Shown in pieces: positions 4,057 to 61,703 of a stretch of DNA of 64,000 nucleotides. Positions within the stretch are counted from its first letter, which is position 1, and each line of letters begins with the position of its first letter. The notes beneath the pieces are model-generated. The model saw only the letters and a program-made list of their open reading frames with translations, was not told the DNA's origin and ran no database searches. A program made the position numbers and the translations under genes. Where the stretch lies: positions 4,340,001 through 4,404,000 of the forward strand of contig CM102288.1 in NCBI GenBank assembly GCA_046563655.1, given 5' to 3'. Source of the DNA: Yuukianura sp. NJ FZ-2021 (taxonomy: Eukaryota).

Positions 4057-7000
4057 ATGGAGTCGGACGCTGAGGAGCATTTTGAACCTCATGACAGTGA
4101 AGAGGAAGGAGGATTTTCAATTGGAACAGTCGTGTTTCCATTGGATCAAAAGCAAAAGGATTTTGTGGACGAGGGAGCTGTGCTCATCGTCGACGCTGAT
4201 ACATACTTAGGCTCGTTTCTTGGCAAGGTCAGAGGTCAACATTTTCTTAAACTTAAAAATTTTGGATTTCAAAAATGCTTTTTTTGATTTCAGTTTCTGA
4301 GTGAAGAGATCGTTGGAGCCACTACTGGAGCGGAAGCAGAGGAGGTGGAGGAAGAAGAGGGGGAAGATGGGGGTCCACCGACTACCCCAGGGGGACAATG
4401 GAAAGTCCTTGGGACACTGTGTGAGAAGAAAAAAGTAGTTCCTGACTTCTTGTGGGCCGTCATGCGCAATGATGACTACGATGCCTACATGAAAGAAGTC
4501 TTGAAGTGCGGAGTGATCATCTACGACGTCACGCATGACCAAAGTCTGCAGCGATTCGCTGAAATCAGAGCTATTTGTGACAGTAAGTAACCTATTGACC
4601 TTTGACCTTCCAGAAATTCCGGTGATTGGCCTTGGATTTTTTTAGGTTTGAGAAGCAACTGGCCTAAGTTTCGAACTCGCCGTGTTTTCATTCTTATTTC
4701 ATCGCTGCACTCTTGGTCCAACACGGGACCAAAGGGCGACGCTGCTGGTGATGCTGCCACGCTGAACGAATCAAATTACAGATTCCGCAGGACACATCCG
4801 CTCTACCGTGACCTTCAACTGCTAGAAAGATACGTCGTTGCCACAGGGAAAATGGTAATCAACTTGACCTTTGACCTCTTGAATTGACCTTTTGGATTGA
4901 CCTTTGAACTTTGGCTTATTCCAGACCAAGGGCATGGTGAAGGCGTACGTGATTGGTTCAGGAGTGATCTATGGTGGCGAAGAATACTGTTTGCATCATT
5001 GGTTCAAATCGGCTTGGCACAACAGCAAGTATCTGCAAGTTTACGGAGACGGCAGAAACCGAGTGCCAACAATCTACATCAAGGATTTAGCAAAGTATTA
5101 ATATAAATTAAACAATTAATTGATTTATTTATAATTATAATTAATTTATTTTTAGGATTGTCCAGAATGTGATGGAGTCCACTCCACCGAAACAGCGCTA
5201 CATCATCGCAGTGGATCCAGTGACGTCACAGCAATGTCAAATTTCAAAAGCGATTAGCAATGTCCTTGCAACTGGACGCTTGAAACGCTGCCCACTTGAA
5301 GACATCTATTTGAACAAGGAGCTAACTGTAATTCATATTTTGGAAAACAGTTTTTTGGAATTTTTTTTTACATGGATTTTGGAATTTCAACTTAATTTTG
5401 AACTTGGATTTGCAGACGTTTCAAGCGGATCAGCTTCTCCTTGATTTGAAAATTGAATCCACATTTTGTCGAGAGCATTTTGAAATTGAGCGGTCAGCGG
5501 CAGAGGGATTCCCGAGCATCGTGAAGAAATTGGCTGAAGAGTATCGACAGGAACGAAACCTACAGGTTAAAAGCAGAAATACTTTTTAGAAATTATGAAA
5601 ATATTTTCGAAACTTCTGGAACTAAAATTTTAGCCACTGAAAATCCTTATCCTTGGCCCCCCGGGAGTGGGCAAATCCACTTTAGCAAGACAGCTCTCCG
5701 ATCTTTACCATTTGCACCATTTTACGCTTGAAGAAATCGTAAAAAGTACTGTGGAGTTGTTAGTAAGCTAAAACGGACACATTTTAAACCAAATTTTTCA
5801 AATTTTTTAAGATTTGACTTTATGTTTTTGAAAAACACAGAAAGAAGTTGCTGGAGATCAAAGTGAGCCGGATTTCGTGGATTTAGAAACAGGCGTAGAA
5901 GAAAGTGCACGAACCACTGCCAGTGCTTTGTTGAGCGAAATCGATGCTACTGAAGGAGAGGTCACGCTGGGTCAGCTTGGTCCAGACCTGCTGGCAAAGT
6001 AAGGTCAAAGGTTAAAAACATCACTTAAGAAAAAGCATAACCTAAGAATTCTGTTGACAGGATCATTCGCTACCGACTTTTGTCTCATCCGTGTCAAAAT
6101 CAAGGATTCATTCTGGATGGGTTTCCAGAATCATTTGAACAAGCTCGTCTCATGTTCATTGCTGGCGAAGATGCTGGAGAGTATGCTGCCGAGGAAGAGG
6201 GAGAAGATGGCATGGGTGACCCCATTGACATTCGCTTGATCCCTGGTACAATCAAAATTCAAAACCAATTTTTTAAAATTCAAAATTTTTTAAATACGTT
6301 TTTGAATAGATCGAGTGTTCTTACTGGAGGCTCCAGACGGATTTCTGAAAGACAGACTAGCAAGTCTCCCCATAACAAAAGTTGAGGAACGGCATCTTGA
6401 AAATAACTTTGAACAACTTTTGGCCAAATACCGCGACGAAAATGAAGTTTATGAGAAATCTGTCATGGCTTATTTTGATCAACAAGAAACAGTGTACGTT
6501 CCGATCGATGTCGTTGCTGATGAGTCGCCATTTCTGAAGCAGTCTGTCTCCTTTGTCAGCATGATCTTGGGCAGACCTAGGAACTACGGTAAGAAAAGTT
6601 CATTAAATGACTGGATTGTTTCTTAGAAAAAATTTTCCGGTGTTTTAAGCTTACTTTTTCTAAAAACAGGAATCTCAAAAGAAGAAGAGGAAGCGCTCAT
6701 GAATGCCCAAAAGTACGAAATGGCTGAAAAAGAGCAAAAGGAATTAGAGGATTTGGCACTTTTAGAGTCACGTGAATTGGAGGAACGGCGTACCAATATC
6801 CAGAAATGGGTAAGTTTAAAACAAAATTTTGAATTTTGATATAAAGACTTGAATTTTTTTAAAAATTTTGACACTTGCCTACATTTCGGTTCTAGATGGC
6901 GAAATTAGCAAAAGTGAAAAAAGAAGAATTCGAGCGCGAGGAAGCAGCGCTGACTCCTCTGAGAAACTACTTGATGTCGCATATTGTTCCGACATTGACC

Positions 7001-7126
7001 CGAGGGCTAATTGATGTCAGTCGGGCAAGACCGGAGGATCCAATTGATTACTTGGCGGAATTCCTGTTCCAGAACAATCCTGGAGGAATCAGTCCTGTCA
7101 ATCCATCCAACATGAATCAAAAATAA
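4057..7126 (+). CDS. AK7: Adenylate kinase 7 (multi-exon)
   Basis: NAD-binding-like N-terminus (FILISSLHSW, GSGVIYGGEE, YGDGRNRVPTIYIKDLA), P-loop GPPGVGKS, CQNQGFILDGFP, coiled coil and C-terminal Dpy-30 motif PLRNYLMSHIVPTLTRGLIDVSRARPEDPIDYLAEFLFQNN. Confidence 0.93.
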
Positions 7127-13817: not shown

Positions 13818-14082
13818 ACCGAACGAGCAAAAAATAAAAGGAAAAGAAAAAGTTTCAAAAATTTAAAAATTTTATTGAATTGGAAAACGAGATTTAGAAT
13901 TCCAGTGAAAGCAAGAATGACGGGATCTGTCATACCTTTTGTCTGTTTTATCTAAAAAAAAATGGAAGGAAAGTTGACTTTGTTAAACGACATGGAGATT
14001 AGAACTTTTCAAAATTTTGAAAAACAAACGTTTTTGATTCAGAGGTCTTTTTTTAAATATCGTTTTACTTGAAAGTTACAAA

Positions 14083-16709
14083 ATGTCTAAATTCAGAGCA
14101 GAAAGGAATGTAGAGCCACGTCAAATTGCAAACAGACGTAGAGTTAGCGTGTCCCCAAACCAGGCAGGACTCAAAAGCGATGAGAAAAGACGCAAAAGTC
14201 GCTCACCCCGGACATCACTAAACCGGAAACCAGTAGGAATAACTCAATTCCAAAGAAATGCTGAACCGCATGCGCAAGGAGAACGACGACAACGGGCCAC
14301 CAGCCTTCCAAATGAAAAACTTCGTCGAAAATCGGTAAATGCTGGTGGCGGGCATCTAGTTAACCACAAAGTACAAAAACCTCCGGAGAGGACGGCGAAT
14401 GCTGGCCAAGCTCATCCCGTTGACCAGAAGTCACCAACAACGCCAGAGCGTGGGAAAGTTATGAATGTCGCCAGAGGACACAGTGTTGGACATATTAAAA
14501 ATGTCGCCCCGAGTCCTGCTCATACGCCTGCGTCGTCCAGAAAACGCAAAGGAAGCGCTGATGTGTTTTATGACAAAATTCAAAAAATTCCGGAATTGAG
14601 ATTCCGATTTAAGCAAACACCGTCCAAGGCCTACTTGGACGAATTGGCCAGGAAAAGAGGTTTTAAAAAAAATTCAAAAAATAATTGATTTTTCTTCAAA
14701 ATTTTGTGTTTTGTTTTTCTATTTCAGTTGCTCGACGAGAATATTATGGTCACTTGGTTTCAGAACGTTATAGAGAACATTTACGTCAACAGAAAGAACG
14801 TCAATTGAATCCAGCGGCTGGACGACGAAACAGTCCGAAGTTGGACCAGCGACGAGCAACCCACGATGACGTCGAACCAATTCTGCGACATGCTTCCGAT
14901 ACTTCGTTCAAATTTGATTTCAGTCCGAAACATCCAACCAGCCACGCTAAAGACAAAAATGTCCATGACGACAATCATCAGCGTCCTGGCAGAACTAAAT
15001 CAGATCCAGCGATTCAACGGCCCGAGAAACAAACTGCTCAAAAATCAAAACCCGCCGCCACTTTGAATTCGACTACAACCAATCAGAAACCAGTTCCAAC
15101 AAAACCAGCTACAACCCATGCTAAGAAACCAGTTCCCGCAAACATCGTTGAAACCCATGCTAAGAAACCAGTTCCCGCAAACATGGTTGAAACCCATGCT
15201 AAGAAACCAGTTCCTGTTAAGGACAAAGGTTATGCTCCAAAGGATGCTAAATCCGACAAATCCGGCCATTTGCCAACCCCCCACGACATAGAAAATTCTA
15301 AGAGGCGCATGTCACACTTTTCTCAAGTTTCTAATCCAGAGACAGTGGACAGCATAGCGACGTCTCATTCTGGAGGTTCCAAACATCATGCGCATGATGC
15401 CCGTAAAGGTGCAACTCAGCATCCACATAATCGCAAAGATCATTGGAAACATGCCAGCACTGTTATGCCGCTCATGCGCTTTAAAAAAAAGGAAGTCACT
15501 CCGGACGAATTGCTCAACCGACTGACTCCGCTGGCTTCACGTCAAGAGCAAAACGAATCTGAGCAAAAAGTAGTGAGCCTAAAGACTGATGACGGCAAAG
15601 ACTCGAACCAACGTCGTCATGCGCATATTACCGACGCCAGTCCTGATGTGACTCCCACCAGTTCCATGCATGTGAAAAATCTAGTCGGTCCTGGAGGGAT
15701 GAAGAGCGGCGCAGAAGATGCACTTTACTACAAAAAGATCTACTCACATCGAAGAAGTATGCGACTGGCCAAAATCAATGACAAATTGGAAGCTAAAAAA
15801 CTGAAGGCTCAGCAAGAAACGGATGAATCAGTGAGAAGTTCAGTGGCCCACCACAGTGAATCAGCCCATTCAGTACCAAGTTTGGCAGCTGAAAAAGCAG
15901 TGGACAGCGGGCATAAGCGAGCACATAGTGCAACTTCAATTGGAACAGCCAGTGTAGCAGCTACGGAGAAACACTTCTCTTTTTGGAAGAAACAAAGTGT
16001 CCAGACAAATAGTCAAGGTCAGGACAAGGTCAAAGGCCAGCACACTGAGAAGCAATCTGAACTTGAGGTTGAAGAAGGTCACTCAAACCCAAAAGTTCAA
16101 CTAAATGCAGAAGATTTACTTCAAGGTCTTAGTCATAAGGATCCAAGTCACTCCGCACCACCAACACGAAGTGAATTGAAAAATGTCGCTGAAAAGAAAA
16201 GTCTCACTCCATTTGCTCGTCTGTCTCAAAAAATTTCCAACTTGTTTAGCAAAAACGACGACAAAGAATTAGGAAATGTTGACGCCAAAGATTCCGGCAA
16301 AAACGACGTCAAAGAATCAGACAAAATTGACGTCAAAGAATCACAATCTGGCAAATTTGACGTCATAGAATCTGGAAAAGTCAATGTCATAGAGAAAGAA
16401 TCCGGCAAAGTTAATGTCAAAGAATCTGGCAAAATTGACGGCAAAGAATCTGGCAAAATTGACGTCAAAGAATCTGACAAAATTGACGGCAAAGAATCTG
16501 GCAAAATTGACGGCAAAGAATCTGGCAAAATTGACGTCAAAGAATCTAGTAACATTGACGGCAAAGAATCTGGCAAATTTGACGTTAAGGAATCTGGTAA
16601 AATTGACGGCAAAGGCGCCATTGCAAATGACGCCAAAAGTAGCGGGAAAAATAACCCCGATCTTAAGATTATATTTCGTCAGAAAAAGTTGAAGCCTGGT
16701 TTTAAATGA
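14083..16709 (+). CDS. Uncharacterised basic, low-complexity protein of about 850 aa with internal tandem repeats (2 exons, intron about 14660-14728)
   Basis: Two long open frames joined by a GT-AG intron; no recognisable domain. Confidence 0.7.
15113..15215 (+). repeat. 39-bp coding tandem repeat (THAKKPVPANxVE, about 2.6 copies)
   Basis: ACCCATGCTAAGAAACCAGTTCC recurs three times at 39-bp spacing. Confidence 0.9.
16275..16645 (+). repeat. 24-bp coding minisatellite (KIDG/VKESG, about 14-15 copies)
   Basis: Unit GGCAAAATTGACGGCAAAGAATCT with variants. Confidence 0.95.
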
Positions 16710-16899: not shown

Positions 16900-19569
16900 T
16901 CATTGGTTTTGCTTTTGATCATCCTGTATGTTTATGACTTGTTTTGAAGTTTTCGTGACATCTACGGCGTCAGTTTTGCGTTTTCCTCCACTTCCACTTC
17001 CAGTTGTAGAATCAAGATCTGGACTGTCTGAACTCTGTGTCGAAAGACGTGACATTGCAGATTGCCTTGAGCTGAAACGACGAGATAGACCGTCTTTCCT
17101 CAGACGCATGCGCTCTGCTAGCATGAAACGCAAATCTGCTTCCGGAATCGGTCGCACCATCAACCGTTCGTCATCGTCATCTTCGTTACTAAAAGAAATG
17201 TTTTGCCATAATAAGTTTTAGCCACTAAAGTTAGCTTAGTGACACCAGAGGGGTGTAAATCCGTGACCACTTTCTTGAAATCCGGATTTCGGATTTTGAC
17301 AAACTTTGATTAGAAATCCGGATTTAACTCCGGATTTCAATATACATAGACTTTCCCGAAGAAGTTTTTCAAAATCAAGAACAATGTTGGTTGTAAACTG
17401 AAAGTGCAAGAACAATTTGATTCCGTTTTTTTTAAGTCCGGATTTGGCAGAACCCAAATCCGTCAAAAATCCGGAACGGGAATCCGGATTTACACCCCTG
17501 GACGTGACATAACCTTGGTAAGGCTAACTTACTCTTCCAGGAGACTTGACACAATGACATTGGGTAAGAAGGGCCCTCCAGAATGTTGACCCTTAAGTGC
17601 CCCTGGTTCCCCAACAGGTCGTTGTTCCTTTGCTCCAGGGATTTCGTAATTCCTTCTTGTTTCAAAATGATTCTTTTGATGAACCAATTCTTGAACGCGG
17701 GATTCAATCAACTTCATACAAAATATGGCGTTATGGGGTTTGATCCCGTCCAAGTTTCCTGAAATTGCAATTTTCAAAAACTCAAAACTTGAAATATTTC
17801 AAAATTGAAGCGAGTCTTGTAATCCATTTGTAAGTTGTGTTTACCTAGAAAAATTGTTAGCGATTTGTACGAACACCCAACGGTTGTGTACAAAGTTTCC
17901 AAATGCTGGATGATTTCTTTCATCGTTCCTTCCGTTTCGGTCAGAATTGATTTCAGTCCGTCCAAGTCCAACTGAGAAGCGGCTTTCTGTTTTTCACCGT
18001 CGGCCAACGCTGCTTTCTGATCACGGTCGCGCTGATTGGCCTCTTCATACTGACGCTCAATTTCCTTCGACAGCTCCACAGTCTCATCACGCAAGGCAAC
18101 AATCTTATGAAAGAAAAAATCAGAACGGAATTTAAGAAACGATTTTCTAAATGGACTTGACGATTTTTTGAAATCGATTTGACAATTTTTTTAAAATCGG
18201 TTTTGCGATTTTTTTTTGAAAACTCACCTCGTGATTCAAGTCACAGTTGGATCGAAAAATGGCAAAGTTTTGTTGCATTTTTTCGTCGTAGCTTTTGATG
18301 AGTCCTTCCATAGAAGAAAAGCTAGATTTAGCTAAAATCCTACGAAAACTGTTAGCGTAAACTGCCAATTGTCGATTCAGCATATTCAGTTTGTTTTGAT
18401 TTTTGCGACGTTGACGCTGCTTTTCAGTTTCGTCAATGTTTCTAGCACAGAGTTTCTTTTGTAGAAATCCACGAATGAGAGCATCATGGTGAATGATACG
18501 ATTGAATTCCTAGAAAGCAAAAACGGACCAATCAGAATTCAAGGAATAACGACGCGGCGGGAAAATAGACGTGAATGACAATTCACGTCGCGAGACGCCA
18601 AAAAGTTTCCAAACCTTCATTTCCAGAACGTGTTGTCGATTGTCCTTGTCATTTTTTTCACGAATTGCGCGAATTGATGTTACCAATTCATCACGATGAT
18701 CGTAGGCCTGTGTAGCCAAAAACACGACTTCGCCCATGCGAATACGAACGTCCTGCAATTGCCGCTTGAGACTTATGTGCCGCTTGTAAAACAAACCGCG
18801 CAGCTTCAAACTCAAGTTGATTTCGTCCCGTCGAATGAGCTTGTTTTCATGGATTTTGATGCAGTATCTTGTGGTGTACTACAGCAAAGGCATAAAAAAC
18901 AGTAAAGGTCAAAGGTCAACTTTTTTAAAATTGGTTTTTTACATAGTATAGTCGATTTTCGAGTATTCGACGCCTCTTGTCCATTTGTCCCGGTGTTTTG
19001 GCCTTGCCATAAATTGCTAGTACTTTGAGCTTGTGGTCGACCAAGTACTTGACAATTCGATCAACATTCATGGACAGTTCCCGGATATTTTTTAAACAAA
19101 ACTCTTGTTCTTCATGCGCTTTGTCATAGCCTTCCAGAATGTCCAAAATGGTTCGACGCGTCATACCGTCTGCGACTTTATTCCGAACACATTCAACATT
19201 CCACAGGTCTGTCTTGATGTCGACGACTTCGGCGTAGAGTAGGTCCAGCAGACGAGCTTGTTTGGACAATGCATTCCCTTTGGCCGCCACGGAATGCCTC
19301 TCTGTGACATAGAATAGTTAAGTTAAACACAATTAACCTAACTTTAGCCTGATTAACCTAACGAACATACCGTCTTCCATGACACGATACTGACGAAGAA
19401 GTCGTTGATACTCATTTTTGACCAGTTTGTCGAAGTCGATCATGTAAGTGTCTCCTTCTTCCAAGTTGTTGATGTTCGGCTGTGCCTTTTTGGCTGGAGC
19501 CTTCTTGTCAGCATCTTTTGGTTTCTTGGCAGCAGCCTTCTTGTCGCCATCTTTAGTTGTCTTGCCCAT
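16900..19569 (-). CDS. ODAD1: Outer dynein arm docking complex coiled-coil protein (ODAD1/CCDC114-CCDC63 family), multi-exon
   Basis: LLRQYRVME, RILENRL, ATQAYDHRDE...IREKNDKD, QNFAIFR..DLNHE match the family; the CCDC63 versus CCDC114 assignment is uncertain. Confidence 0.75.
17245..17501. mobile_element. MITE, hAT-like, inside the last ODAD1 intron
   Basis: Terminal inverted repeats CCAG(AG)GGGTGTAAATCCG / CGGATTTACACCCCTGG, repeated subterminal TCCGGA(TT) motifs, degenerate 8-bp flanks TAGTGACA / ACGTGACA. Confidence 0.75.
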
Positions 19570-23846: not shown

Positions 23847-24901
23847 CTTTCTTGAATTACTCGGCAAAGTCCGACTGCTCAGCTCACGGTCACTCTGGCT
23901 GACTGTTACCACCGATGCCACCGAATCTTAGTCTTCTTCAATTAGTTTAGTTGATTAGTCACTCGAGACTTCAATTGTGGACGGATCACCGGACGCTGCG
24001 CCAAGACTAAACAAATTCCAATCAGCTGAGCGTGGCAGCGTGAGCACTAGCCATAAAAGATAAAGTCGGCCTTTCTGGAAAACAAAAATGACCAATTAAT
24101 GTGATGAATCACGGATGACGAGGACGAGACGAAATAAACAAGAAAATATCGTTATTAATCTCACCTTAAGAGGATGTGAACATGAGTCATAGTAAGTTCC
24201 ATTCACACGAACAACTTGATCCTGTAATCCGACGTCCAAAGTAGCCCAAGTCCAGTTTGGGCAGTTTGACCTTTGACCTTGACAGTGGACAATCACAACA
24301 ACGACTTCATTCAGAACCAAAACAGAATGAATGAACGAGTAAAATGAATCTTCTGCGAGAGTGAAGATGAAAGTGGCTTTAGGCTCCTCCCCCTCTTTCC
24401 GAATCTGGTCCTGTCTAGACACATTTCCACGAAAACAACAAAGGTCACTGACCTCCTCCGTAGTAAACGCAGCACATTCCAACCGGATCGATACATCCAT
24501 TGGCTCCGGAAGTGGCAACTTTCACAACACCACACGCAACCACTCATTCATTGATGAAAATAACGTTAGTAATGCCATCCTAACGTTATTTCCTCTAATC
24601 ATTTTACACTAGCATTTATTCGAAATCGAAAGCAATAAACACTATTGAAAATGAACTTTACAAAAGTAATGAAATACAATTTTGATTTTCATAAACTTTA
24701 CAATGCTGTTGATAAATTACTTAAATTGTGAGTTTTTAGAAAATAGTAGTAAAATAGGAACAGGACAAGAAAGATTTGATTTTGACAAGAAATTTTGCAG
24801 CATTTTCGAATTCACATTGATTCAGACTGGAGTAACTAAAAACTAATTAAGTTCCAACGTAAGTTTAATTAAGCTTTTTGTATTGGACGTTAAGACTGAT
24901 G

Positions 24902-28858: not shown

Positions 28859-30925
28859 CTAGTGACATCCGCAGGATTCTGCGACCATGTCCACATACTG
28901 TCGCAGTACGACATTGTCGTGGTCGTCGTAGTAAAGAAGCGAAATCGGAAGGAGATTCGTGGGGACGCAGCATGGAGGTTTTACGGTACTGGACAACTTC
29001 AGCGCATGCACAATGCTTTGTACCGTAGCATGATTAGTTGGTTTGACCTTTCAAAAAATCAATTCAAAATTTAATTTTTCAATCAATTTTTTGTGAAATT
29101 GTCTTTTGACCTGTGACCTTGACTTAATCATGTCCTACCTGTTGCCCCAGGGGGAAGTCGCATGTTCCATCGCAGTAGAAGGCATTGTACCCCTTGGGGG
29201 AGATGATCCACGATGACCAACCGATGGCTTCAAAATTCACCAAAAGGTCACGCCGTCCACACGAGGGTGAAGACGAGGTCAAGGTCACCGTTTCTGTGAT
29301 ATTCCTTGATCTTCTGTTCCTAAACCGGGTTACAGAGTTCGGATGTCGGATTGAATCTTTGTAGAGCAGAGCATGATGAAACCGAGGATTCTCGAGACCT
29401 AAATTGTCCAACCGATTTCAAACAAAAAAAAAGTTCAAACTGAAAAAAAAACAACAACAAAATTTTGATTTACTGGACGTTGGTACTGGATTTTCCTCGA
29501 TGTCATTGCTGACATGCTCCGTCGTAGTTTCGTTGTGACCGTGATTTGAATCGTCGGTGGTATCGTTCTTGACTTTTTTCGAATGACCTTGACCTTTTCC
29601 ATTTGAAAATGGCAGAATGGGGTCCAAGGTCAAATCCTGCGTGAATAAAACCAAATTCGGTTGTTTGCTGTCGATCGTTTCACCGCGACGTGAAAATCGA
29701 ACTGGGACGCGGTCTCCTCCCAAACTGGTTGCGACCAATAAAAATCCGAGGTTCGGACGTTCACCATTAATCCAGCGTGTCACAGACTGTCAAAAATAAA
29801 ACATATCTAATATATCTATATCTAATAAAATTTATACTATAATAAAAATATTTCTAAAAAAAAAAAACAGAACGAAAAAAAAGGAAAAAAGTTCCACAAA
29901 AAAAGAATAAATAAAAAAAAACTCAATTTCCAAACTTAACGCTACAGGCAACATTTGATCTGAATTTACGAGATTCCTAAGTAAAATATTATTAAAATTT
30001 GGAAAATAATAGGTGACGTACCTGTTTGACATTGAAAATTTCCCAGCCTGACCCAAGAGCGTGACCGTAGTTGACCCCCAGTAGTTTGTGGAGGTCAGGA
30101 ACTCTAAGGTGGTTCATATCCAGTACTTCATAGAGACTCAGGATGTAGAATGGGGTCATGTACAGTGATGGATGCAATGCTTCATGCGCAGTAGGTGACC
30201 TGTAGACATGCAGTTCTGCTTCCAGAACTTTTTCAGTCACTCCCAGACTATTATTGGAGACGTTGAAGTAGAAGTAGTCGTTGAGAGAGTTATTTCTCTC
30301 CATAAAACTCCTCACGATATGAGCATTATATGGGTTTCTGGCACGAGTCACTCCGAATGAGTCTGTAATTGTGTTGTAAAGGTCAATCATAAATTCTGGG
30401 GGAGAACCAACAAGGTCAAGGTCACTCGGCATCGAATTCAGACCAAAAATCTGCAAACATCAAAAAATTAAAACAAAAAAAAAGTCATCAAAATGTGGGG
30501 AAAAACTCAATCAAAGCTTTTCACGAACTACTAAATTTGAGATCTTCACAGGAAATAGAGGATTCTCGGTTTTTGATGATTGGAGTTTTTTTAAATTAAA
30601 GTTTTAAATTTATGGTTTTTCATAATTTTTTTTAACTTTTCATTTTTTTTTATTTTACCTTTGAAAGTGTATCCAATGCATTTTGTTTGCTGTTTTCCAT
30701 TTCTTGGCGAACGATTTGTTCCACTTCTTCAGAAAATTGGACAATCGGTTCATCATCCGTCTTGTTCAAGTTTTCAATTGATGACAATTTCTCATTTTGG
30801 AAACTTTCACTTGAATTGTAAAAATTTCTCTCCAGAAAATTTTGATCCACAAACCCAAAAATAGTTGGTACAAAAAGCACACCAATGATCAGAATGCACA
30901 TCGTATGTCCGCTTTGGACGGTCAT
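28859..30925 (-). CDS. ADMP: Anti-dorsalizing morphogenetic protein (TGF-beta/BMP family), multi-exon
   Basis: Prodomain PPEFMIDLYNTITD..GVTRARNPYNAHIVRSF, furin site RNRRSR, mature domain IGWSSWIISPKGYNAFYC..C.FPLGQ, TNHATVQSIV, PCCVP, ISLLYYDDHDNVVLRQYVDMVAESCGCH; the FPLGQ and IISPKGYN signature and the Pinhead neighbour point to ADMP. Confidence 0.88.
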
Positions 30926-38200: not shown

Positions 38201-39926
38201 ATTCCGATTCAAAAAATTCTGTGTTTGAGTTGAACAGTTTTTGGAAACTTCAGGTCCTGAACACGTACGCATGCAAGAGAAAATTTCGAATGTTAAGAAG
38301 GTAGGGAATTTCTTTTTTTTTTTTTTGTATTAAAAATCGTTTTTGAATTATTTATAGTTTTTGAAAATTTGGACAGCAGAGGTGAACGACTTGTGTTGTT
38401 GAGGAAGTGACGATTGACACGGTAGCTGTCAATACTGTTGTATGTGCGGATGACGCATGTCATTTCCAAAAGCCTTTCTCCATAACCTCCCAATATTTCA
38501 AAATTCATCGACTTTTAAGCATCATGGGAGTCGTAAGTAGAACGAGAACTTTTTTCTTACTAGTTTTTTCCGCCTGTATGTGTTCAAACTTGCCAAATTT
38601 TGACACGACCGAATTCATCATCATCAACGGAAGCCTTTGCTGAGCTGCTTTGTTTTTGCATCCAACCGAAAAAGTCGCCCGGAAGCGCCTTTTTTTCGAA
38701 ATTGAAATTCTGGAGCTATTTTTTGCAAAATAAATTCTGAGAAGTGGAAGTAGAGCTCGACGCTTTAGTATGTGATGACAGAGGCAGTGACAATAGAAAA
38801 AGTACTTTTTTTTTGCAAGAAGAAAGAAGCAATTTGCAAAAAGTACTTTGAACTTCTCGCAAATAATTTTTCCTAAACTTCAAAAATATAATTTAGGGTC
38901 CTCATTTAAAGTAAAAATTGCAACCATATTTTTCCCACTGCAGTACTCGTCCGGGTCGTTTGAATTTTAAAAATAGCCGAAACTTTGACAAAGAAAAAAA
39001 AATCTGACTTTTTTTTTGCAAAAAAAAAATCCAATTTGCAAAAATCTCCGTTTTCTGCTCCAATTCTACCGAATAAATTTACTTTTAATCTAAGTCCTTC
39101 CATCATTAGTTTTTATTCCAAATTCAACCTGGATTCATCTGATTAACTTTTAACTCATTTTTTTTTTGCAAAACGCGCAATTTTTTTTTGCACAAGCTAA
39201 AAGAAAGCAGGCCAAAGGAACTTTGACGTCACTTGACACTTGCCTGTCCCTGTTTCAGTAGATTTGAATCTCCAATTGTCTGCTGTTTTCTACTTGTCAT
39301 CTTCATGTTTCTATTTTTAATGCGTAAAGTGCGTCTGTCTCCCACTGTGAAAGAAGAAGTGCGTTTGCCAATATTATTCGCACAAACGTCCAAAAGTGTT
39401 TTATGGGTGACAGTTTTAGGCAGATTGGAAAAAATAAGATAGAAATAATACAAAACTATAATTACTTACAGAGGGGGAAGAGCAGGCAAATCAGTATGTT
39501 TAGATATTTTTTAAAAGCTTTTTTGAAATCTAGTTCTTAAAAATGTAGATCTTTCTTAACTTTAGACGCATCTCATCAGATTTATTTATTTTTAATTTGA
39601 CATCATTTCTTTCTTAAACTAGTTTTTCGAAAAAGAAAAACTAAAAAACTGAGTCATCCACGTGCGACACCTTTGCAAAACTGTTAATCCACGCGTCCGT
39701 CATACTTTTTAGTTTTTCAAATGTTCTATCGGTTATATATTCGTTAGGTTTGCTAGATCGCATTGGTAGATTAAATCTAATTTCAATAATAATTTGTATT
39801 TTATTTCATTTTTGTTTTAAGTTTTTTCGAAATAACTTTTTATAAAGTTTTTGCATCATTTGCGGTTGGTTTGATCTTGGTTTTCTTTCTGTTTCAATTT
39901 TTCTCTTGAAAGTTTGACCTTTGACC

Positions 39927-41105
39927 TCATCCGATGAATGACTTGAGTAGAAGGCTCATTGCTTTTGACCTAGAAAACAAAAACGAGGATATTGACCTTT
40001 GACCTTTAAAGTAGTTTCGAAAAAGTAAAAGTTTTGTAATGTTTTTACGTTTCTTCAAAGAAGACGTCCTCGGTAATCATGCCTTCGCTGTGTCCAATTG
40101 GTGTCGGATTGTATCTTGCAATGCCCAGCATTTCCATTGCTAAAACCAGAAAAGTTCTAGTGTTATTTTAGTTTGACCTTTGACCTTCAGCGGAATTTTT
40201 ATGATTACATACCTGCTTTATACTGTTCAAGTGAAATAAACTTCTGTTGCTGCTTGTCAAACAGAGAGAACATGGCCAGGAGATGGTTTGGCTCAAACAC
40301 GACATCCAACTTTTCCATTTCGTTTTTGTCTCCACGACATTTGATCATTTGCTCACAAGTATCCTGGATGTACTCAAACGGGTCGTCTAGCAAAGGTCAA
40401 AGGTCAAATTTAAAGGTCACATGATGTCATTTTGTTGAAAATCATACCTGGAAGATGGATGCAAAGCAGCGTCAGCAAGTATTCCATGAGTTCCTCGATG
40501 TTGTGACCTTCAAAGTAGTCGTAAACTGCTTCTTCCGTTGTTTCTACTTCAGGAGGACAAAATGGCGGCCGTTGTTGTGACTCCGGTGGACCAAAGAACA
40601 GGAACATCCTATTGGACGCATCGTACATGATGTTAGGCTCTCCAGCTCCTTCTCCTGGACACTCCGGTGACCAATCAACACACGGATTCCATTTGTGGGC
40701 CGTCGGTGGTGGATTTCCTGGAATTTTCTTCTGGGCATTGGCAGGAAGCGGCGGTGAAAAAGTTGCAGTCATCTGAGGGCCCTTGGGACGTCCATGGCCC
40801 TTGCGCACTAGAATTGGTGCGCAGGTTGAGGTCATCCGAAGGTCATCGGGGTAGGCTGGACCAAGATTCGTTCCAGGCTTGAACAGGAGACTGCCGTAGG
40901 TGGATTCATCTGGAATGTCTTCAGTATTGGGACCACCTGAGAACCCGAGAGCCAATCCTCCAAAGGTATTGTTAATGGCTTGACCTGCTTTAGAATGATG
41001 CCGATTCCCGTGTTCGTCTTCGGTGGGCCCTTGACCTTTGACCTTCTTGTCACCAGCATTGAGGTCATCACGGTATAGAGATCGACGCAATCCTCCTGGT
41101 TCCAT
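39927..41105 (-). CDS. EFCAB10: EFCAB10-like protein (RIIa/DD-like domain plus EF-hand) with long Pro/Gly-rich N-terminus, 4 exons
   Basis: YFEGHNIEELMEYLLTLLCIHLPDDPFEYI...AMFSLFD..QQKFISLEQYKAAMEMLG. Confidence 0.72.
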
Positions 41106-44318: not shown

Positions 44319-44395
44319 GATCAGTACAATTTTAAACCTGGAATTTTTATTTGGAATTTGAACTTGTACAAAAATCTTTGTCTTCTCACCTTGTA

Positions 44396-45725: not shown

Positions 45726-47766
45726 TCATACTGAAATTGTTACTGAATTCGGCTCCTGCAAATTCGCAACGCCGACTTCCCTCTGTTCAATTCTTTTGGC
45801 AATTTTGCGAGAACGCTGACTCCGAACAGTGGCACGCGCATAAGGTAAAATGGCTGGAATGACAACGAACAGCAGCACAAAAATTCCAGTGTAGCAGACG
45901 TTGACTAGACTTGATAGACAAGGGGACTCTGTACCGGCAGAGGTCAAGGTCACTCCAAGCCCAATTGACATCAACGCAACCGTTTCAATCCAGATGAACC
46001 AAAATACCTAATCAAGATTTCAAAATTTTGAAATCAATTCTCTATTTAAATATTTGAGTTAATTGTTCTACCCAAAGCGGATGACTCATTGGAAAGAAAA
46101 TGGTGGCCATGTAACCAGAAAGTGTTCCGCACAATGACAGTCTTCCGAATTGACCCGGAGATTCCCGACCTCTTCTGACCCGGCTCAAATGATAAAAGTA
46201 GTCCACCAATGTAAATCCAAATCTCGGAAGCGTTATTACCAAAAGACCAACGACGACAGACATCGATGACCCCAAAGTACATCGAAGTGAAGTCAAAAAG
46301 TAGGTCAGTGCCATCGTCCTTGACCCTAAAATATTCAAACATCAATTTTCGGAATCACAATTTTTTTGTGTTTTTAATTTTTTCCAAAATTACCAAAACT
46401 GGAAATCATTCGAATTCCAAGGAAGACACGCGAAACTGGAGAGTAGATTCCTTTTCTGACAGAAGTGGCTACCATGTCACTCCTTCCAGGAAGATTTGCA
46501 ATTGTCATGACCATAAGCGAAAGAATGACACTGGCCAAGGTCAATGACCCTTTGCCAAACGTTATGTCACCCGAAGTCTCCATTAAAATTGCAAGTTGCA
46601 GCGTAGCTTGTGGAGCAGACTGGAAGAATCCCTGAACTCTTGACAAACTTTGTGCGAATTCCTCAATTGCAAAAAAGTGGACGCTGTAAACTTGTTCTCT
46701 GTTGGCTTTGAAAGCAGAGCGAACAGCATAGTACGAACTGCAAATAACATCAAAGGTCAAAGGTCAATTCTAAAAAAATTGAAATTTCATAAGAATTACC
46801 TCAGAATTGTCCCCAGAGGCGGAAAGCAATTGACCAAAATTTGAATTCGTCTGCCATGTCTGAACAGACGATCCAATCGATCTTTCCTGTTTGCAAAACA
46901 TGAAACCAAAATTTTCTAAAACTGTTTGGAAATTTTGAAATTTTGAAAAACTTACTCTGCCTGGTTGAACTGACCCAGCACACCGAAACTTCCAAGAACT
47001 AAAATGAAGAAAGTAAGAGCAGAACACCATTTGAAATTGTATTCGCCACCTCCGTCGTCCCAGTAGTACCAACATGCCAGCGTTGCGTCGACGCAGAAGC
47101 TCAGAAGGTGTGACACGAAGATGGCTGCAGTAAATATGACATCCTCAGTTCTTACTCCAGTGGAGTTCTGGGTTGAAACGTTCACGAAGTCTCCGGATGG
47201 TCGCCGTGGCTCCGGCGTAGAACGGTCGCCTCTCCACGACTTCCTTGTCTGTTCCTCCTGCAGTGATTTTGCCAATTTCCCAATGTCCAGTCGATCCTCA
47301 TCAGAATCAAATCCAAACGATAAGTTACTGATTGACCTCCTCTTTTTCTGCAAGTCTTCTGGTGACCTTTGACCTTTGGGGGGCAGTTTCACCTCTTGCT
47401 CAGTGCTTAAACTAGGAGGTCTATTCCTCTTGGCTTGTGCAAATCTCTGGTCAAATTCGATTTCACTTTCGTCATTATCCGAAAACGGAGTGAAGGGGTT
47501 GTGAATTCGGTTCGTACCGTTACTGGAAATGGCCAAATCGAATCTCGCTTCTGCAAAAAATAAAATATAAATCGAAAATAATTTCGCATTAAAAGTTGTT
47601 TTTAAATTCTAAATTGCAACTTTTTTGAAGAAATTTTGGTACCGGGATTTGCAAAAGGATTCGAAGGTATTCGATTTTGTGGCCTAGAAAACAGTATGTC
47701 TTCTGCTTCTTCCGGATTCTCTGAAGGCACGACTGCTTCCATATGCTTCGCTTGAAGCGGGTCCAT
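45726..47766 (-). CDS. XK-related membrane protein (putative scramblase), multi-exon
   Basis: D..LA..YY, SAPQATLQL, multiple TM segments, YFGVIDV, IWIET; long cytoplasmic N-terminus. Confidence 0.75.
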
Positions 47767-49020: not shown

Positions 49021-49091
49021 AAATCTTAAACTTTGTAATTCTTTGTTGTTTTGACCTCTTTTTAATAACTTTTTTTTTCTTGAATTGCAAA

Positions 49092-49955: not shown

Positions 49956-50264
49956 GTTGAGGTCAAAGGTCAATGATTCTAAATCGAATCGGTGTGACAA
50001 AAAAAAAAGGATGGAGAAACTTATTACGAACCAAAGCTCACGACGACGTTTCTAAGAACTAGACTTTCGCCTGACGCTAAATTCCAACAATTTTGTATTT
50101 AGTTCTAGCAATTTGATTAACAAAATTTCGTCAAGATAGTGTTTTGTGTACTATAACTTTTGGGAAAAGTTGGTTTGAAATGTCCTTTTCGCAGCAGAGT
50201 TTTTGCAACTTTTCTGAAATTGCGAAAGCAAGTGAAATTTGGCCAAACAATAGGAATTCGCATT

Positions 50265-51522
50265 TCAGCGTTGAGGGCACTTGGCTAAAATCCTTGTCGG
50301 CGAACCTAAGAAAAAATTAACTTCTGGGTTATAATGCATGTTTGGATTTACGTACATCAAGAATTTGAAGGTCATTTGATTATTTTGACCTCTGACCTTA
50401 CCTGTTCCACCAACAATTTTCATTGGAAGAATAAAAAAGACGCAACTTTTTCTCAGAATCAAATGTAAATTGGCCACGTTTTCTAAGTTGTACACTTGAT
50501 TTTTTGCGAGGAAGACATGAACCGGAGCAGTCTGAAAATTAAAAATAATTAAAATATGGAAATAATATTAAATACAAAACATATTATTAGATTTATAAAT
50601 ATTAATTACATACCACCGCTCTTCCCTGATCTACTGAAGCAGTGTCGATTCCGAGTCCTACGATTTGGCGCTCGTTGAACAGCCACTTGGAGGCTTCTTC
50701 CGACACACCTTGATTTAATACAAATTTAATGTAAGTAAATATATTCACAATTAATTGAATTAGTTAAATTAATCACTTTGTAACCTGGAAAGTTCAATTT
50801 CGGCTTTTCATTTTCCTCCAAAGTGGAATTGTCCCATCCAAGGTACTTTTCCTTGTCTGACCAAAACTTGGACCAACCAGTGTACACAAACACAACTCCA
50901 CGAGATGGGATTTTTCCTGCAAGAAGAGGTCAGAGGTCAAATTCAAAAAAAAAATTTCAAAATTTGAAAAAAAAGCAACAAAATTTTGAATTTTGATTCT
51001 GAGTAGCTTACCGTACTTGATTTCATGATTTACAATGTCCTCCACAGTAAGAACATAGTCTGCACGGGTTATTGACCCTGTGACCTTTTCTTGAACGTTA
51101 ATCACATGACCCGGGACATCCACCAAGTGACCCATCGGTATCTGCTCCACTCTCCATCCCTCTTTGTAGAAATGATACGGTGAGTCCAAGTGGGTTCCAC
51201 CATGTTCTCCCATGCAAAAGGAGAATGCAGAGTACCTATACAGGTCAAAGGTCAACTCATCAAAAATTTTACAAAATCTTCAATTCAAAATTTTGTTAAA
51301 CCATCGGTCATATTTTGTGTCCCATCCGAAATAGTCTTTGAACAATTGAAATTCCCTTTGACCCGGGTAGAAAATTGTGTCTTCGTTTACAGAGTAACTC
51401 AAATCAAAATATTCAACACGCTCACGTTCACTGCAACTTTCTTCATCTGACGAATGTCGGCTGGATGCTAAACAAATTGCTACACATGTCAACAAAACCA
51501 AAATTATTTGACCTTTGACCAT
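50265..51522 (-). CDS. Cyclase-family metal-dependent amidohydrolase (KynB-type kynurenine formamidase / isatin hydrolase-like) with signal peptide, multi-exon
   Basis: FDLSY, EHGGTHLDSPYHF (HxGTHxDxPxH), YTGWSKFW, FPG, GLGIDTASVD, VH..FL...VYNLENV, PMKIVGGTGSPTRI. Confidence 0.9.
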
Positions 51523-52474: not shown

Positions 52475-55400
52475 TCACACGAATTCCGTAAAGTCCACGA
52501 CATTGAACGGAAGTTTTTGTTTAGGCGGAGCATTTGGAAAATCACTAGAATCTGATCCACTTCCTAACACTTCTGGCTCCAGCCGACTTCTCAGTTGCTT
52601 AATTTTACGAAGTCGTTCCAACCAGTTGGAAGCGTATGGACTTTGTTGAGCGGATTGAAAAATTAGAGAAGCCAACTGAAACAAAAAATTCAGATTTTTT
52701 TTTTCTCAAAGAAATCAACTGATTTGTAAACTGCCAAGGTCAAAGCCGAAATGTTTTTCTTACGTTCGAATGCAGAGCCAACTGACGTGCCAAAATTGGC
52801 AAGTTCCGATCAGATACAATTTTTGCTTCTGTGTGACCAATTTGCTCTTCAAGGACTGGCTTGGCTTTGACTATGATTCGATTCGTTCCATGATCCAGTG
52901 GTTGAATAATGACACAAGCATAGAGAAATTGACCCTGAAAAAAAAGTTCATTGTACAATTTCGTCCGAACTGTAACAAAAATTGACACAAAAGTTGAATT
53001 ACCTTGATCGTTCCAATGTCGTACTCCTCATTCGCATTATTATAAACGATTGCCACATAGTCATTCCCAATATGGCGCTTCTTGGAGTTGCAATTGGGGT
53101 CATTGCTCTTGTTAGGCATCAAGGTCGCCACATGGAACATCACCTAAGATAGTCAATTACTTTCAGTAAAAACTTTCAAACAACTTTAGTTTTCAAAATT
53201 TTGAAAATTACCTGCATGACATCATCTTGCCAAATGTAAGCAAATTCTCCATCATCTCCGTCACGTGACAGTCCACCCAAAAACGTTTTCTGTGGATCCA
53301 CTTCCCGCAGTTTCACAAGTCTTCCAAGTCCTTGCAAAAAATCTCGATATCGCATGGATCCATACGGATTTTGAAGAATCGAAGTTTCATTGGTAGATTG
53401 CCCTTGACCCACATACAAAACTCCAATTTTGTGTGTTTCATACGGAGGGATATAATCGATAACCTGAAAGTCAAAAGTTTTCAAAAATTGTTAAATTTTC
53501 AAAACATGAGTTGCAATTTTTGTTCTTACTTACCTTGATACTGTTTTCCATTTTTGTTGGAACTAAAAGTGGTTTGACCTCTCTTCCAAACAGTTGAAGG
53601 AAAACAAATCCAGGACTCATTCCAGATCGAATGCTACTCGAATCCTGAGAACCTCCACCTCCACCAAAATCATAGTCACGACGATTCATCTTATGTCCAG
53701 TGTCACCACTGCCTGCTGACAAAATACGACGAAGTCCTTTGCTAGATCGCGCATGCGGTCCACTCATCACGGACACCGTATTGGTTCTATCACGCTTCAG
53801 TGGTGTCAAGTCCACTTCTCTTGTCCTAGCCGACCGTACTTCCTCTACTGAATGCTGAGTCTGGAACGGAACTCTGTCTTGAACAGTTTTGATAAAATCG
53901 GCTGGTGACGATGACAAAGCAGAAGCTCCATCTTTCTGAATCACTTCTTCTGGAATAGCTTCGTAGCTTCCACGATAAGGTGAAGTTGTTCCACCTTTGG
54001 TGAGATGACTGCCTTTGAATGTCGAAGATACTTCTGCAGCAGAATTCAACATTTTTTCTGGACTGAAGACATCATCAGTCTTTGCAGAATCTTCTTCGTC
54101 CTGTTCTTGGATTTGATGTTGTTGGTTGATATAAGAATGCTTCCATGATTCCATTTCTGGAGAAGAATTTGATCGATGGACAGGTTGCTTTGAATTGTCA
54201 AGTGGAATACGCATGCGTCTCTCTTCTGGAGGTGACATAGCACTTGGACTCTTCGGGGACGACGGGGAGGACTTGCTTTTCTGTAGAGGAGGATGTGCTG
54301 CTGCTGCTGAACTCTCTGAATGACAACAAAATCAATCGAATTTGAAAATACTTAACAAAGTTTGCAGTTTGTGACCAAATTTCAACTGACCTTGTGATGA
54401 AGTCAACTCGCAGCTTCCTTCCTCAATGGAAGCATGGCGCGTAGGGGACTTGTGCGGCGAAACGGGGCATGGTCCAGGAGGTGTTCGAGAAGGAGAAAAG
54501 CCTGAACTGCTGCTCGAGTAAGGTTGAGGAGCTGGATTTTGAGTGCGTGAAGATGGTGAATTTTGTAAATCTACTGGATCCTTTAGAAATATTGCTGACA
54601 GCTCCCGCATTGGAAAGTCCTGCCCACTATTATTTCCTAGCTGATTTTGAATTCGCATCATCCAGGAAGTATTTCCGGTTGGACATCGAATATGAATTTC
54701 AGCCCATCCTTGACACCAGCAAGTGCACAGCATGTGATCACTCTGAAAAAAAAACGTTAAGTTTTACTGATTTGAATTTTTTTAAATTCTAATAAAAAAA
54801 ACCTTTTGCTTTGGGGCCCAATCTCCAAATTGTCCTTCTTCCAGCATTTCCCCAGTCAAACTCAGTTTCCTATTTGGTGGTTGGAGCTTGTGTTCCAGGC
54901 CTAAATGCGAGTCGTCCCTCGTCTTTGTTCCACCTCCATCGAGTCTCTCGCTTTCATCAGTTTTGCTACTGCTCGTCACAAGTTCAGAGTGATGCCTACG
55001 CCTATTACCAGCATCGGCTCCACCAGAGGCTGTTAACTGATCAAGATTAGTAGATTTTGTGTGATCTTCATCTGCGGAGTCTCCAGAAGTAGGATTGGTC
55101 AGCGCTGGACTTGGCTTCCGACTGTTCTCAATAATCAAAATATTAGTAAAGTTTGTTTAAGTCTATTCTTCAAATTCCTTACCATAACAGGAAGCATCTA
55201 TCGCACATGCTGTCACGCAATTCCTTCTGTGTACATCCACTTGTCGTGATTGTTACAATTTGATTATCAACGAGCCAAGTCTGTGAGTTGCCCCCCGAGA
55301 GCAAGAACGTCGTCGACGGGAAGCGGGTAGGAAGAGCTGATGAATCTGAGAAAGCATATCGTGCCATCAGATCCACACAAGTTTCAGTCAGTTCTTGATG

Positions 55401-59683: not shown

Positions 59684-61703
59684 GATCGGACTCTGGTCAT
59701 TCCCAAATCCGAATCCCTTCCCTACGTCTTTGTTTCCTTCTGAAGAGTTTATATGTAAAGGGGAGTAACGTGTCAAGTCAACTCTGTCCTCATGGCTTAA
59801 TTGTTGCTAAAATCCAATTATTTTAGCAACTCAATTAATTAAATGTATTTATGAAAAGTCAAGGAAGTTCAAACAGAAAGAAAACGATTAAAAGCAGATC
59901 CAAAAACCGAAAATGGAAGGAGAGTGATTTTTTGAAGGTCGTTTGATTCCCGAATCAAAAAGAGAAACAAACATTTTAAATTTTTTGCCACTCGCTCTTC
60001 CAGAAGACGCTGCTGGGATATGACCTTACAACGACGAAATTTCATACGCTGAAAAGGTCATAAAAAGTATATGCAGGTCAAAGGTCAACGTTTTGATGAA
60101 GTAAAGTTGTCATTTTATGGTAGAAAATAAAGAAGATGATCCTTAGAAGAAAAAAAAATCCGCTGTACTTTTTATTGTTTGTTTCTCTTTTTTTGTGCCT
60201 GTCGGTATCATCTTCTGGCTTCTCGAAATTGGCAAAACGAAACCGCAAATTGATTTTTATGTAGGTGAAACACTTTTTTATGGTAAGAGGAAGTGTTTGT
60301 ACACGCTAGACCAAGTTGACTAATTAGTTTAAAGACTAATTGAACATGACATGACTAATTCAGTAAACTAATCTAAACTTAACCCTGATTTTTCTTTTCT
60401 TGGTCATAAACAAACATTAAGTGGAAACCTACAAAAAACTTTTACGACTTTTTTTTTCAATTTGCAATTTCAATGAACTAACACAATTTGCAAAAAAAAA
60501 TTCAATAGAGTGTCAAAGAACACTTCAAAATGTAAAAGAAAAACCAAAGCTAATTAACCCTAAAATTATTGCGGATGATCGATGCTTTTCGCTCCAGTTT
60601 CCAACTTTCTAAATTTTAAGTGAAACGGAAACCTTGAGAATTTGACTTTTTCTTTTTTAAATAAGTTTTGAAATGGTTTGAAATTTTAATTTTGAACTCA
60701 AAACTACATTTAATTTTAATTTAAAACAAGACTTGGTCTATAAATAGACCAAGAGAGCCTCTTCCATTTCCTTAGTTCAAGTTTTTACTTATTATCTTCA
60801 ACTTTGTTCTGTTTTAGTCCATCTTCTCAGGAAGATCATCTTACAAAGGCAGACCTAAACACACACAAAATTTTTTTCCCTAAAAATTCATTTTTGAAAA
60901 CATTTTTTTCTGAAATTTTGAAACCAAACCCTGCCCATGTGGGCTGTCGGCGTCTTTGAAAGCATCACCGGAACATTTACAAAAACTGAAATTTGGTGAC
61001 GAAAAAACTAAAACTTTTGAGTCACGATTTTCATGGGGGTGGAATTGTGGAATTTAGTTTTGGATTCTTGTATAGTGCTCACTTGTTAACTTGTTGAGTT
61101 AACTAGTTTAAACGAAACAAAAAAAAGTTAACTGACTTGATTTTTTTGAGTAAAGTAGTGCGTCAGTAGCCCCAATTTGTGTTTTCTTACTCACAACTTT
61201 TTATGAAACTAAAAACCAAAAATCTTTGTTTCTTCAGCTCATCATCATCCCCCTTCTTCTTTTTGTTCATTTAGTTCTTAGGAAGAGTTGCAGAACGACT
61301 TAAATTCAAGATCAATACCAACACTCACTTCCTAACCTCAATATCAATCACTACTTCAAACAGCACACTTCAACTTCTCAAGTTCTCCTGTTATTGTGAA
61401 AAACATCATCATCAAAACATGTTTTTAGTTTTTAATTAATTTAATTAACACTTGAACTAATTAAAACCTTGGATATTTCTCCATCTGGAAAGACAATCCG
61501 TCAGGAGGCAAATTCTGCTAAAAAATCAAACGGTTTTGGAATTCTGAAAATATTTAGAAATATTTGTGTTTTTTTTGACGTTCAAGTGCCATAAGTGAAG
61601 TGAAGTTTTAAAAAAGTTAAGTTTAATTGCGTTTTAAGTGGAATTTGAGAACGTGAGAAGAAGTGTGAAAAGTGACACTTGACATAGAAAAGACAATTCA
61701 AAA

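Follow-up and report, generated by a model that had tools for sequence, protein, structure and literature searches.

A 64,000-nucleotide (nt) stretch of DNA from the springtail Yuukianura sp. NJ FZ-2021, hereafter the window, carries many copies of DR1, a direct repeat of the half-site AGGTCA with a one-base spacer, and counts given below refer to this window unless stated otherwise. The copies have a defined spacing and degeneracy profile, lie on either strand in coding and non-coding DNA alike, are concentrated at particular loci, and have no carrier repeat around them. The evidence suggests a DNA-level signal in a subset of genes that is neither a transposon leftover nor a splicing signal. 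The reading placed first, although held with somewhat less than even confidence, is that the copies are putative high-affinity DR1 receptor sites, kept by selection in homotypic clusters in a subset of genes.

Exact copies of the 13-mer AGGTCAAAGGTCA numbered 14 and started at all 14 of the positions listed in the initial annotation of this DNA (4596, 4865, 18906, 24267, 39915, 39993, 40174, 40394, 41032, 46754, 47363, 49960, 51242, and 60075). None of 100 dinucleotide-preserving shuffles of the window (G+C 33-42%, zero N) contained any match. All four DR1 copies listed with another spacer base were likewise found, at 4226 (G), 29107 (C), 50386 (G), and 50927 (G). The four one-mismatch copies that had been named are all real (6002, 21607, and 51509, together with one whose start was corrected from 416 to 415), and further one-mismatch DR1 copies were located at 4898, 16027, 26406, and 41253. 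Copies with 0, 1, 2, and 3 mismatches numbered 14, 12, 11, and 31, compared with 0.05, 0.25, 3.2, and 25.5 expected from 20 order-3 Markov simulations. The half-sites total 157 over 128,000 strand positions, which gives an expectation of about 0.19 pairs per spacing, and 18 pairs were counted at the DR1 spacing. The excess of the motif is real and far beyond chance. A literature search returned no report of the DR1 motif AGGTCAAAGGTCA in springtails (Collembola), nor of its spread without a carrier.

The consensus of the copies is (A)AGGTCA-A-AGGTCA-A. Same-strand pairs of AGGTCA occurred 18 times as DR1, six times without a spacer (DR0), three times with a two-base spacer (DR2), and at most four times at any other spacing, while inverted and everted pairs numbered at most two at every spacing, palindromes being near absent. 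No same-strand pair with a spacer of eight, the signature of a trimer, was present in the window, and the absence of trimers means that the unit is a defined dimer and not a microsatellite. A microsatellite or minisatellite was ruled out as a candidate, arrays of three or more units being absent. The spacer base is A in 14 of the 18 DR1 copies, G in three, and C in one, and 4 of the 12 one-mismatch copies differ in the spacer alone. In 17 of 18 copies an A follows the 13-mer and in 12 of 18 an A precedes it. Position counts are flat beyond one base on either side, and the exact form (AGGTCAA)x2 accounts for 13 of the 18. The partners within DR1 are nearly "perfect or absent", with 18 perfect and few degenerate.

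Under an order-2 model, AGGTCA was the top over-represented hexamer of 3062 (5.0-fold). Among its 18 one-letter neighbours, GGGTCA was the sole one clearly raised (3.05-fold); the others lay at 0.49-1.54, and the remaining five transition neighbours at 0.70-1.51. If numerous copies were decaying neutrally, every transition neighbour should be raised, so a profile raised at GGGTCA only counts against decay. The enrichment profile reads RGGTCA, which is the profile of a nuclear-receptor half-site. Half-site pairs with a one-base spacer, selectivity for spacing and orientation, and PuGGTCA degeneracy, all of them marks of a nuclear-receptor DR1 element, were found. A study of the TR4 DNA-binding domain describes GGTC as vital and PuGGTCA as the best half-site; A6, an adenine spacer, and A1 together make an A-A-A stretch that narrows the minor groove, which is read by shape (PMC9943680). 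The A-rich spacer usage in the window and the excess of spacer changes in its one-mismatch copies agree with this description (PMC9943680).

The positions of the copies are listed below by window coordinates and strand, with the orientation given relative to the gene where one was assigned.

4226..4238, plus strand: DR1 with a G spacer in the AK7-like gene, sense orientation; it supplies the donor GT of a 66-nt intron, AG|GTCAGAGGTCA
4596..4608, minus strand: exact DR1, antisense; the donor of the 63-nt intron 2 of the AK7-like gene lies 13 nt before it
4865..4910, minus strand: exact DR1 (4865-4877), a lone half-site, and a one-mismatch DR1 (4898-4910), all antisense; the cluster occupies most of intron 3 (68-70 nt) of the AK7-like gene
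18906..18918, plus strand: exact DR1 in the ODAD1-like gene, antisense, midway along a 64-nt intron
24267..24279, minus strand: exact DR1 in an AT-rich, poorly annotated stretch outside assigned genes
29107..29119, minus strand: DR1 with a C spacer, sense to the TGF-beta-like gene, 19 nt past the donor closing the exon ...CDGTCDFPLGQQ
39915..39927 and 39993..40005, minus strand: two exact DR1 copies in the 3' part of the EFCAB10-like gene or downstream of it
40174..40186, minus strand: exact DR1, sense, in a 73-nt intron of the EFCAB10-like gene, 26 nt past the donor
40394..40406, plus strand: exact DR1, antisense, in a 61-nt intron of the EFCAB10-like gene, ending 7 nt 5' of the acceptor
41032..41044, minus strand: exact DR1 in coding exon 1, AAG GTC AAA GGT CAA = KVKGQ, about 20 codons past the ATG at 41105
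46754..46766, plus strand: exact DR1 in an unnamed gene, antisense, within a 218-nt intron whose acceptor lies 16 nt beyond the copy
47363..47375, minus strand: exact DR1, sense, in a 218-amino-acid open frame (PPKGQRSPE); exonic by frame alone
49960..49972, plus strand: exact DR1, antisense, shortly before the first in-frame ATG of a 319-amino-acid frame (49095-50051); leader or intron
50386..50398, minus strand: DR1 with a G spacer, sense, beginning 3 nt into a donor-like GTAAGG (GTA|AGGTCAG); found by eye, not among the calls of the intron predictor
50927..50939, plus strand: DR1 with a G spacer in the cyclase-domain gene, antisense, within a 95-nt intron whose acceptor lies 10 nt beyond the copy
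51242..51254, plus strand: exact DR1, antisense, followed after 6 nt by an acceptor-like TATAG that lies upstream of the cyclase-domain exon (by eye)
60075..60087, plus strand: exact DR1 in the unassigned DNA that separates the TSC2-like gene from the next one
415, 6002, 16027 (exonic, DKVKGQH), 21607, 26406, 41253, and 51509: one-mismatch core copies
Across the window, unevenly: 104 lone RAGGTCA(A) half-sites

The excess of the half-site extends into codons. In synonymous shuffles of 33 coding-like frames (18.6 kb), AGGTCA was observed 25 times compared with 6.4 expected and TGACCT 22 times compared with 6.2, and none of 500 shuffles reached either count. As these frames may contain intron ends, the test was rerun with 300 synonymous shuffles on 13 long exons from which 90 nt had been removed at either end, leaving 9,747 nt in total. 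In the trimmed exons GGTCAA (21 vs 4.4), AGGTCA (18 vs 4.6), and TGACCT (12 vs 2.4) took ranks 1-3 of 3202 hexamers, the counts of AGGTCA and TGACCT were reached by none of the 300 shuffles, and the sites lay in all three frames and on both strands. Other high-ranking exon hexamers trace to a coding tandem repeat at 16.2-16.7 kb. Half-site density was 2.5 per kb in the coding-like frames and 2.4 per kb elsewhere. A DNA-level force favours the half-site even at synonymous positions, four- to fivefold in exons. Of the two exact copies that had been placed in exons, the one at 41032 (KVKGQ) is coding by orthologue alignment: the single homologue found (52% identity) aligns straight through it (window ...DKKVKGQGPTEDEHGNR vs ...TSNRGQGPTEDEHGNR), the second half-site forms conserved G-Q codons, and the homologue lacks a clean five-residue gap. 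The other, at 47363 (KGQRS), lies in its 218-amino-acid open frame without a homologue. The tandem repeat mentioned above (16215-16662) has a 24-nt unit in about 13 in-register copies, is SGKIDGKE-like, and forms the C-terminal end of a 674-amino-acid disordered frame.

The genes of the window are of animal type with introns of about 60-75 nt. Their content comprises a GH31 glucosidase, a methyltransferase, an asparaginase, an ODAD1-like coiled-coil protein, a Ulp1-type protease, kinases, a TGF-beta-like ligand, a small heat-shock protein, TRMT10, a cyclase-domain protein, and tuberin (TSC2). The best named relatives of an intronless SBK/meng-po-like kinase are from the springtails Allacma fusca (55% identity), Orchesella (49%), and Folsomia (46%), so that the sequence itself also points to a collembolan source as the most likely one. 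The half-sites are unevenly distributed over these genes. Counts per 2 kb were over-dispersed, with a variance/mean of 2.8, or 1.9 with adjacent sites merged. They stood at about background in GH31 (1-4 kb), at 14-16 kb, at 22-24 kb, and in tuberin (52-60 kb), and rose to 10-15 per 2 kb at 4-6, 28-32, 40-42, and 50-52 kb. Exonic half-site counts track the loci, with seven in the 40413 exon, six in the kinase exon, none in two GH31 exons or in TRMT10, and one in a tuberin exon. The intron predictor over-calls, and of its 146 candidates the 43 that are not readable through and are well scored were used as confident introns. DR1 was present in three of eight confident introns of the AK7-like gene, two of two of the EFCAB10-like gene, and none of eight of TSC2. 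In the AK7-like gene the motif occupies three consecutive introns (66, 63, and 68-70 nt). This gene was named from one exon matching residues 35-122 of adenylate kinase 7 (E = 4e-4) and a later exon with an adenylate-kinase match. The EFCAB10-like name is weak, the Pfam match being sub-threshold (24.7 bits, cut-off 32.5). The other DR1-rich genes gave no usable match in solved structures, NCBIfam, the homology search, or the atlas. Two AT-rich stretches, 35300-39900 and 24000-28000 (G+C 0.31-0.35), have few coding-like frames and 4-8 half-sites per 2 kb, and perfect DR1 is scarce in them.

Several copies touch splice sites, as the initial annotation had noted in offering a splicing or branch-point signal as one option. 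The contacts of 4226 (donor), 40394 (7 nt), 50927 (10 nt), and 46754 (16 nt) were verified, and those of 50386 and 51242 were judged by eye. Such contacts would suit a signal acting at the RNA level that mimics a branch point and polypyrimidine tract in one orientation and a donor in the other. Copy 4226 does act as a donor, and its G spacer supplies the +5 G of the donor consensus. Copies 40394, 50927, 51242, and 46754 read TTGACCTTTGACCT and precede acceptors by 6-16 nt, an arrangement compatible with a YTRAY-like branch sequence together with a pyrimidine tract, and 7 of the 43 confident short introns contain a DR1. However, two different RNA sequences would have to act, and copies also lie in mid-intron (4596, 18906, and 40174), in exons (41032 and 47363), and in unassigned DNA (24267 and 60075). 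Thirty-six of the 43 confident introns, including all eight of TSC2, splice without a DR1, and exonic half-sites are equally enriched on either strand. The proposal was abandoned on the use of both orientations (two sense and five antisense among the confident introns with DR1; 25 sense and 29 antisense half-sites over all 146 candidate introns), on the variable distances to splice sites (7-47 nt from motif to acceptor), and on the exonic and unassigned copies, and a splicing role for the motif is now regarded as hardly credible. The orientation-by-position pattern is read here as accommodation, in that a 13-mer in a 60-70-nt intron must overlap a splice signal and survives in the compatible orientation only.

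The copies have no common surroundings. Comparison of 120 nt on each side of 37 copies with at most two mismatches gave 60 weak pairs compared with 52 in random controls, in keeping with the earlier statement that flanks are not shared, and the sole strong flank matches were between physically overlapping neighbour copies. A repeat search of the window gave no dispersed family around the motif, and a literature search found no paper joining TGACCTTTGACCT with a transposable element. Metagenome contigs were scanned with the 15-mer AAGGTCAAAGGTCAA, and the loci listed (at least 120, in 218 kb) hold about 26 further DR1 copies. Among the matches listed, 91 of 134 motif instances fell in one dispersed repeat of about 300-400 bp belonging to other organisms (median G+C 0.445), with a core of four AGGTCA units at spacings of 2, 1, and 0 and a second, weaker cluster about 150 nt downstream. 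This repeat is a transposon that spreads receptor-type sites. Among the matches listed, none of the 41 loci outside the repeat family was recognisably springtail.

The window copies could by analogy be relics of a DR1-carrying transposable element, as in the metagenome contigs and in primate Alu. The mostly transposon-borne occurrence of the 15-mer in the metagenome matches favours such an origin, as does the precedent of HNF4 sites at about 1.2 million Alu-borne locations reported by Bolotin et al. 2011 (PMC3252374). Nevertheless, the window copies share no flanks above control level, no dispersed family surrounds them, and the profile of the metagenome repeat matches the window over 16-22 nt at the motif only (best E = 0.018). 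The mismatch spectrum corresponds to about 7% divergence, at which a co-inserted flank would stay about 93% identical, an estimate that is in part inferred. With no carrier and with flanks at control level, the suggestion of a decayed repeat or of fragments of a known transposon did not hold, and an origin of this kind is considered very improbable.

A non-adaptive proliferation, in which exact dimers are continually born by a mutational process and then decay neutrally, is ranked second after selection for binding and is judged unlikely. Candidate processes are a 7-bp tandem duplication of an existing AGGTCAA and target-site duplication after transposon excision. The form of the copies suits such a birth: exact (AGGTCAA)x2 makes up most of the DR1 set, an A follows the second half-site in 17 of 18, the AGGTCAA rotation class holds 37 of 58 tandem 7-mer positions, partners are perfect or absent, and the DR0 and DR2 pairs (six and three) could be imprecise products. 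Yet the 7-14-nt gain expected from duplication is absent, introns with DR1 being no longer than the others (median 66 nt, n = 7, vs 72.5 nt, n = 36; p = 0.28). A search of all pairs 30-8000 nt apart in the window gave zero candidates for an element bounded by direct AGGTCA(A) with inverted ends. The copy at 41032 is in frame with conserved G-Q, and its orthologue has no clean five-residue gap. The four- to fivefold enrichment of lone half-sites at synonymous positions is left unexplained by duplication, and GGGTCA is the sole raised neighbour where decay predicts all six transitions up. Density is strongly locus-dependent, trimers are absent, and the window has no general excess of 7-mer slippage or duplication. 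The initial annotation had also offered a uniform mutational or insertional process, and this fails on the over-dispersion of the excess by locus, on the neighbour profile, on the intron lengths, and on exonic copies kept in frame via synonymous codons.

In the preferred reading, selection for receptor binding, DR1-type sites of the form (A)RGGTCA-A-RGGTCA-A, the sequence preferred by NR2-class dimers (HNF4, USP/RXR, Svp/COUP-TF, HR78/TR2-TR4), would be read by such a receptor. Selection would hold the sites at the optimal sequence or close to it, and they would form homotypic clusters within and beside a subset of the genes of a compact springtail genome. As non-coding space is scarce (60-75-nt introns), sites would be placed wherever their orientation suits the splice signals. 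Intronic sites would take the orientation that fits, with the AG|GT end at donors and the pyrimidine-rich strand near acceptors, and exonic sites would be written with synonymous codons. The effect would be transcriptional, and one possibility is that a gene battery with axonemal or sperm members is repressed or activated. The initial claim of a DNA-level feature reaching over unrelated genes beyond chance stood (14 exact copies and four spacer variants vs 0 expected, with unrelated flanks). Its qualification, "rather than ordinary enhancers", was not established, because gene-by-gene clustering is what locus-specific regulatory targeting would give.

Five observations weigh against selection for receptor binding. 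In the TR4 study, a preference in vitro for a five-base spacer (DR5) of AAAAA is reported (PMC9943680), and DR5 occurs only twice in the window, contrary to a literal TR4 reading. Half-sites are as dense in exons as in non-coding DNA, which would be unusual for classical enhancers. The clustering of DR1 alone is not significant, with a variance/mean of 1.53 per 4 kb that 509 of 5000 simulations reach. The excess by mismatch class is nearly flat (14, 12, about 8, and about 6), which is the pattern of constant birth and decay under mutational proliferation. Finally, 14 of the 37 copies with at most two mismatches are perfect, which looks more like copies born as exact dimers, while receptor regulons usually consist of imperfect sites.

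A recognition mark on the scale of a chromosome, domain, or gene battery was also weighed and is thought quite unlikely. A sequence-specific protein would coat the gene bodies of a defined chromosome or gene set, and in one variant the motif may spread by a binding-dependent bias in repair or gene conversion. Perfect sites occur about once per 3.5 kb, and half-sites reach 2.5 per kb in exonic and non-coding DNA alike; both densities would be in keeping with such a mark, as would the lack of a carrier around a perfect consensus. At several copies (40393, 46750/46767, 49956, and 51242; agreement about 0.5), contigs from other parts of the same assemblies match for about 20 nt and then diverge, which fits a wide dispersal of the motif. 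The axoneme annotation of the three named DR1-bearing genes (AK7-like, ODAD1-like, and EFCAB10-like) hints at a germline or sperm gene set and is a lead, not a result. Against such a mark, several neighbouring genes are at background, so that the domain is not continuous, the axoneme link comprises three genes of which one has the sub-threshold Pfam match (24.7 vs 32.5 bits), and we know of no system of this kind that uses DR1. In springtails the DR1 word would then be a self-standing mark for a gene set or chromosome, with a receptor-like protein reading whole gene bodies and with no carrier, which is likewise given a low probability. The candidate marked set would be germline- or sperm-expressed genes, with the word written, through selection or a binding-dependent bias in repair or gene conversion, into synonymous codons and almost every intron of the marked genes, and this extension shares in that low probability. 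Some members of the springtail lineage eliminate chromosomes.

Other words and repeats recur in the window. The AT-rich palindrome TTCAAAATTTTGAA is exact at 14008-14021, 28623-28636, 46019-46032, and 53192-53205 and has one mismatch at 13416 and 38139, giving four exact places and six at no more than one mismatch compared with 0.39 expected. Contigs from elsewhere in the assemblies also match at the TTCAAAATTTTGAA places and then diverge, and the palindrome may be another dispersed short signal or intron low complexity. Among tandem 8-mers its relative (AAAATTTC)x2, a related direct form lying around 46929-46953, ranks first (14 of 18 positions). The palindrome CGCATGCG lies at 14267, 17105, 53750, and 54210 (8 strand counts vs 0.37 expected), GCGCATG has 18 sites compared with 2.2 expected, and both resemble an NRF1/Ewg-type word. 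The palindrome TAACGTTA lies at 12174, 22213, 24561, 24581, and 41503 (10 strand counts vs 0.85 expected). CGCATGCG and TAACGTTA were considered as promoter words and set aside, the mapping being uninformative as both words also occur inside exons. A non-coding tandem array with a period of about 38 nt (TTTTGCTTGAAGGCAAAAAT...AAAAGGTTTTGT; 4-5 copies) lies at 48764-49024, just 3' of the unnamed gene located at 49-50 kb.

Should the sites be under selection, the window would be a case of extreme regulatory packing in a compact animal genome, in which the bases of optimal receptor sites double as parts of splice donors, polypyrimidine tracts, and codons. No nuclear-receptor regulon has been described with sites this dense. 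Selected sites would then offer a clean system for the reconciliation of overlapping codes and for the multiplication of binding sites without a mobile carrier. If the origin is mutational instead, a process that deposits a specific 14-mer would itself be new.

Among known systems, the Alu-borne HNF4 sites are similar in that very many DR1-type sites are scattered through genes, and differ in that they are mostly low-affinity variants, whereas the window copies are optimal and carrier-free (PMC3252374). With the nuclear-receptor DR1 element, as described for TR4, the copies share the direct repeat of AGGTCA, the one-base adenine spacer, a purine at position 1, and an invariant GGTC (PMC9943680). 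They also share the preference for DR1 over DR0 and DR2 and the absence of palindromes. In contrast, described regulons come nowhere near their density (one per 3.5 kb) or their perfection (14 exact in 64 kb), they lie in 60-70-nt introns and in codons, and the half-site excess reaches synonymous sites. Bacterial DNA uptake sequences and Chi resemble the motif as short words present in coding and non-coding DNA alike, by way of codon choice, and are served by known machinery; we know of no such process in animals. The C. elegans rex/MEX and pairing-centre motifs and the Drosophila MSL elements are likewise short words, highly enriched across a chromosome or region, in introns and gene bodies without shared flanks. 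These systems, however, involve one chromosome and a known complex, while neighbouring genes in the window differ sharply in density. The RE1/NRSE silencer element of vertebrate neuronal genes, read by REST, is alike in being a long, near-perfect motif in the introns and exons of a gene battery with one reader protein. It differs in its protein family and motif and in usually occurring once or a few times per gene rather than in nearly every intron.

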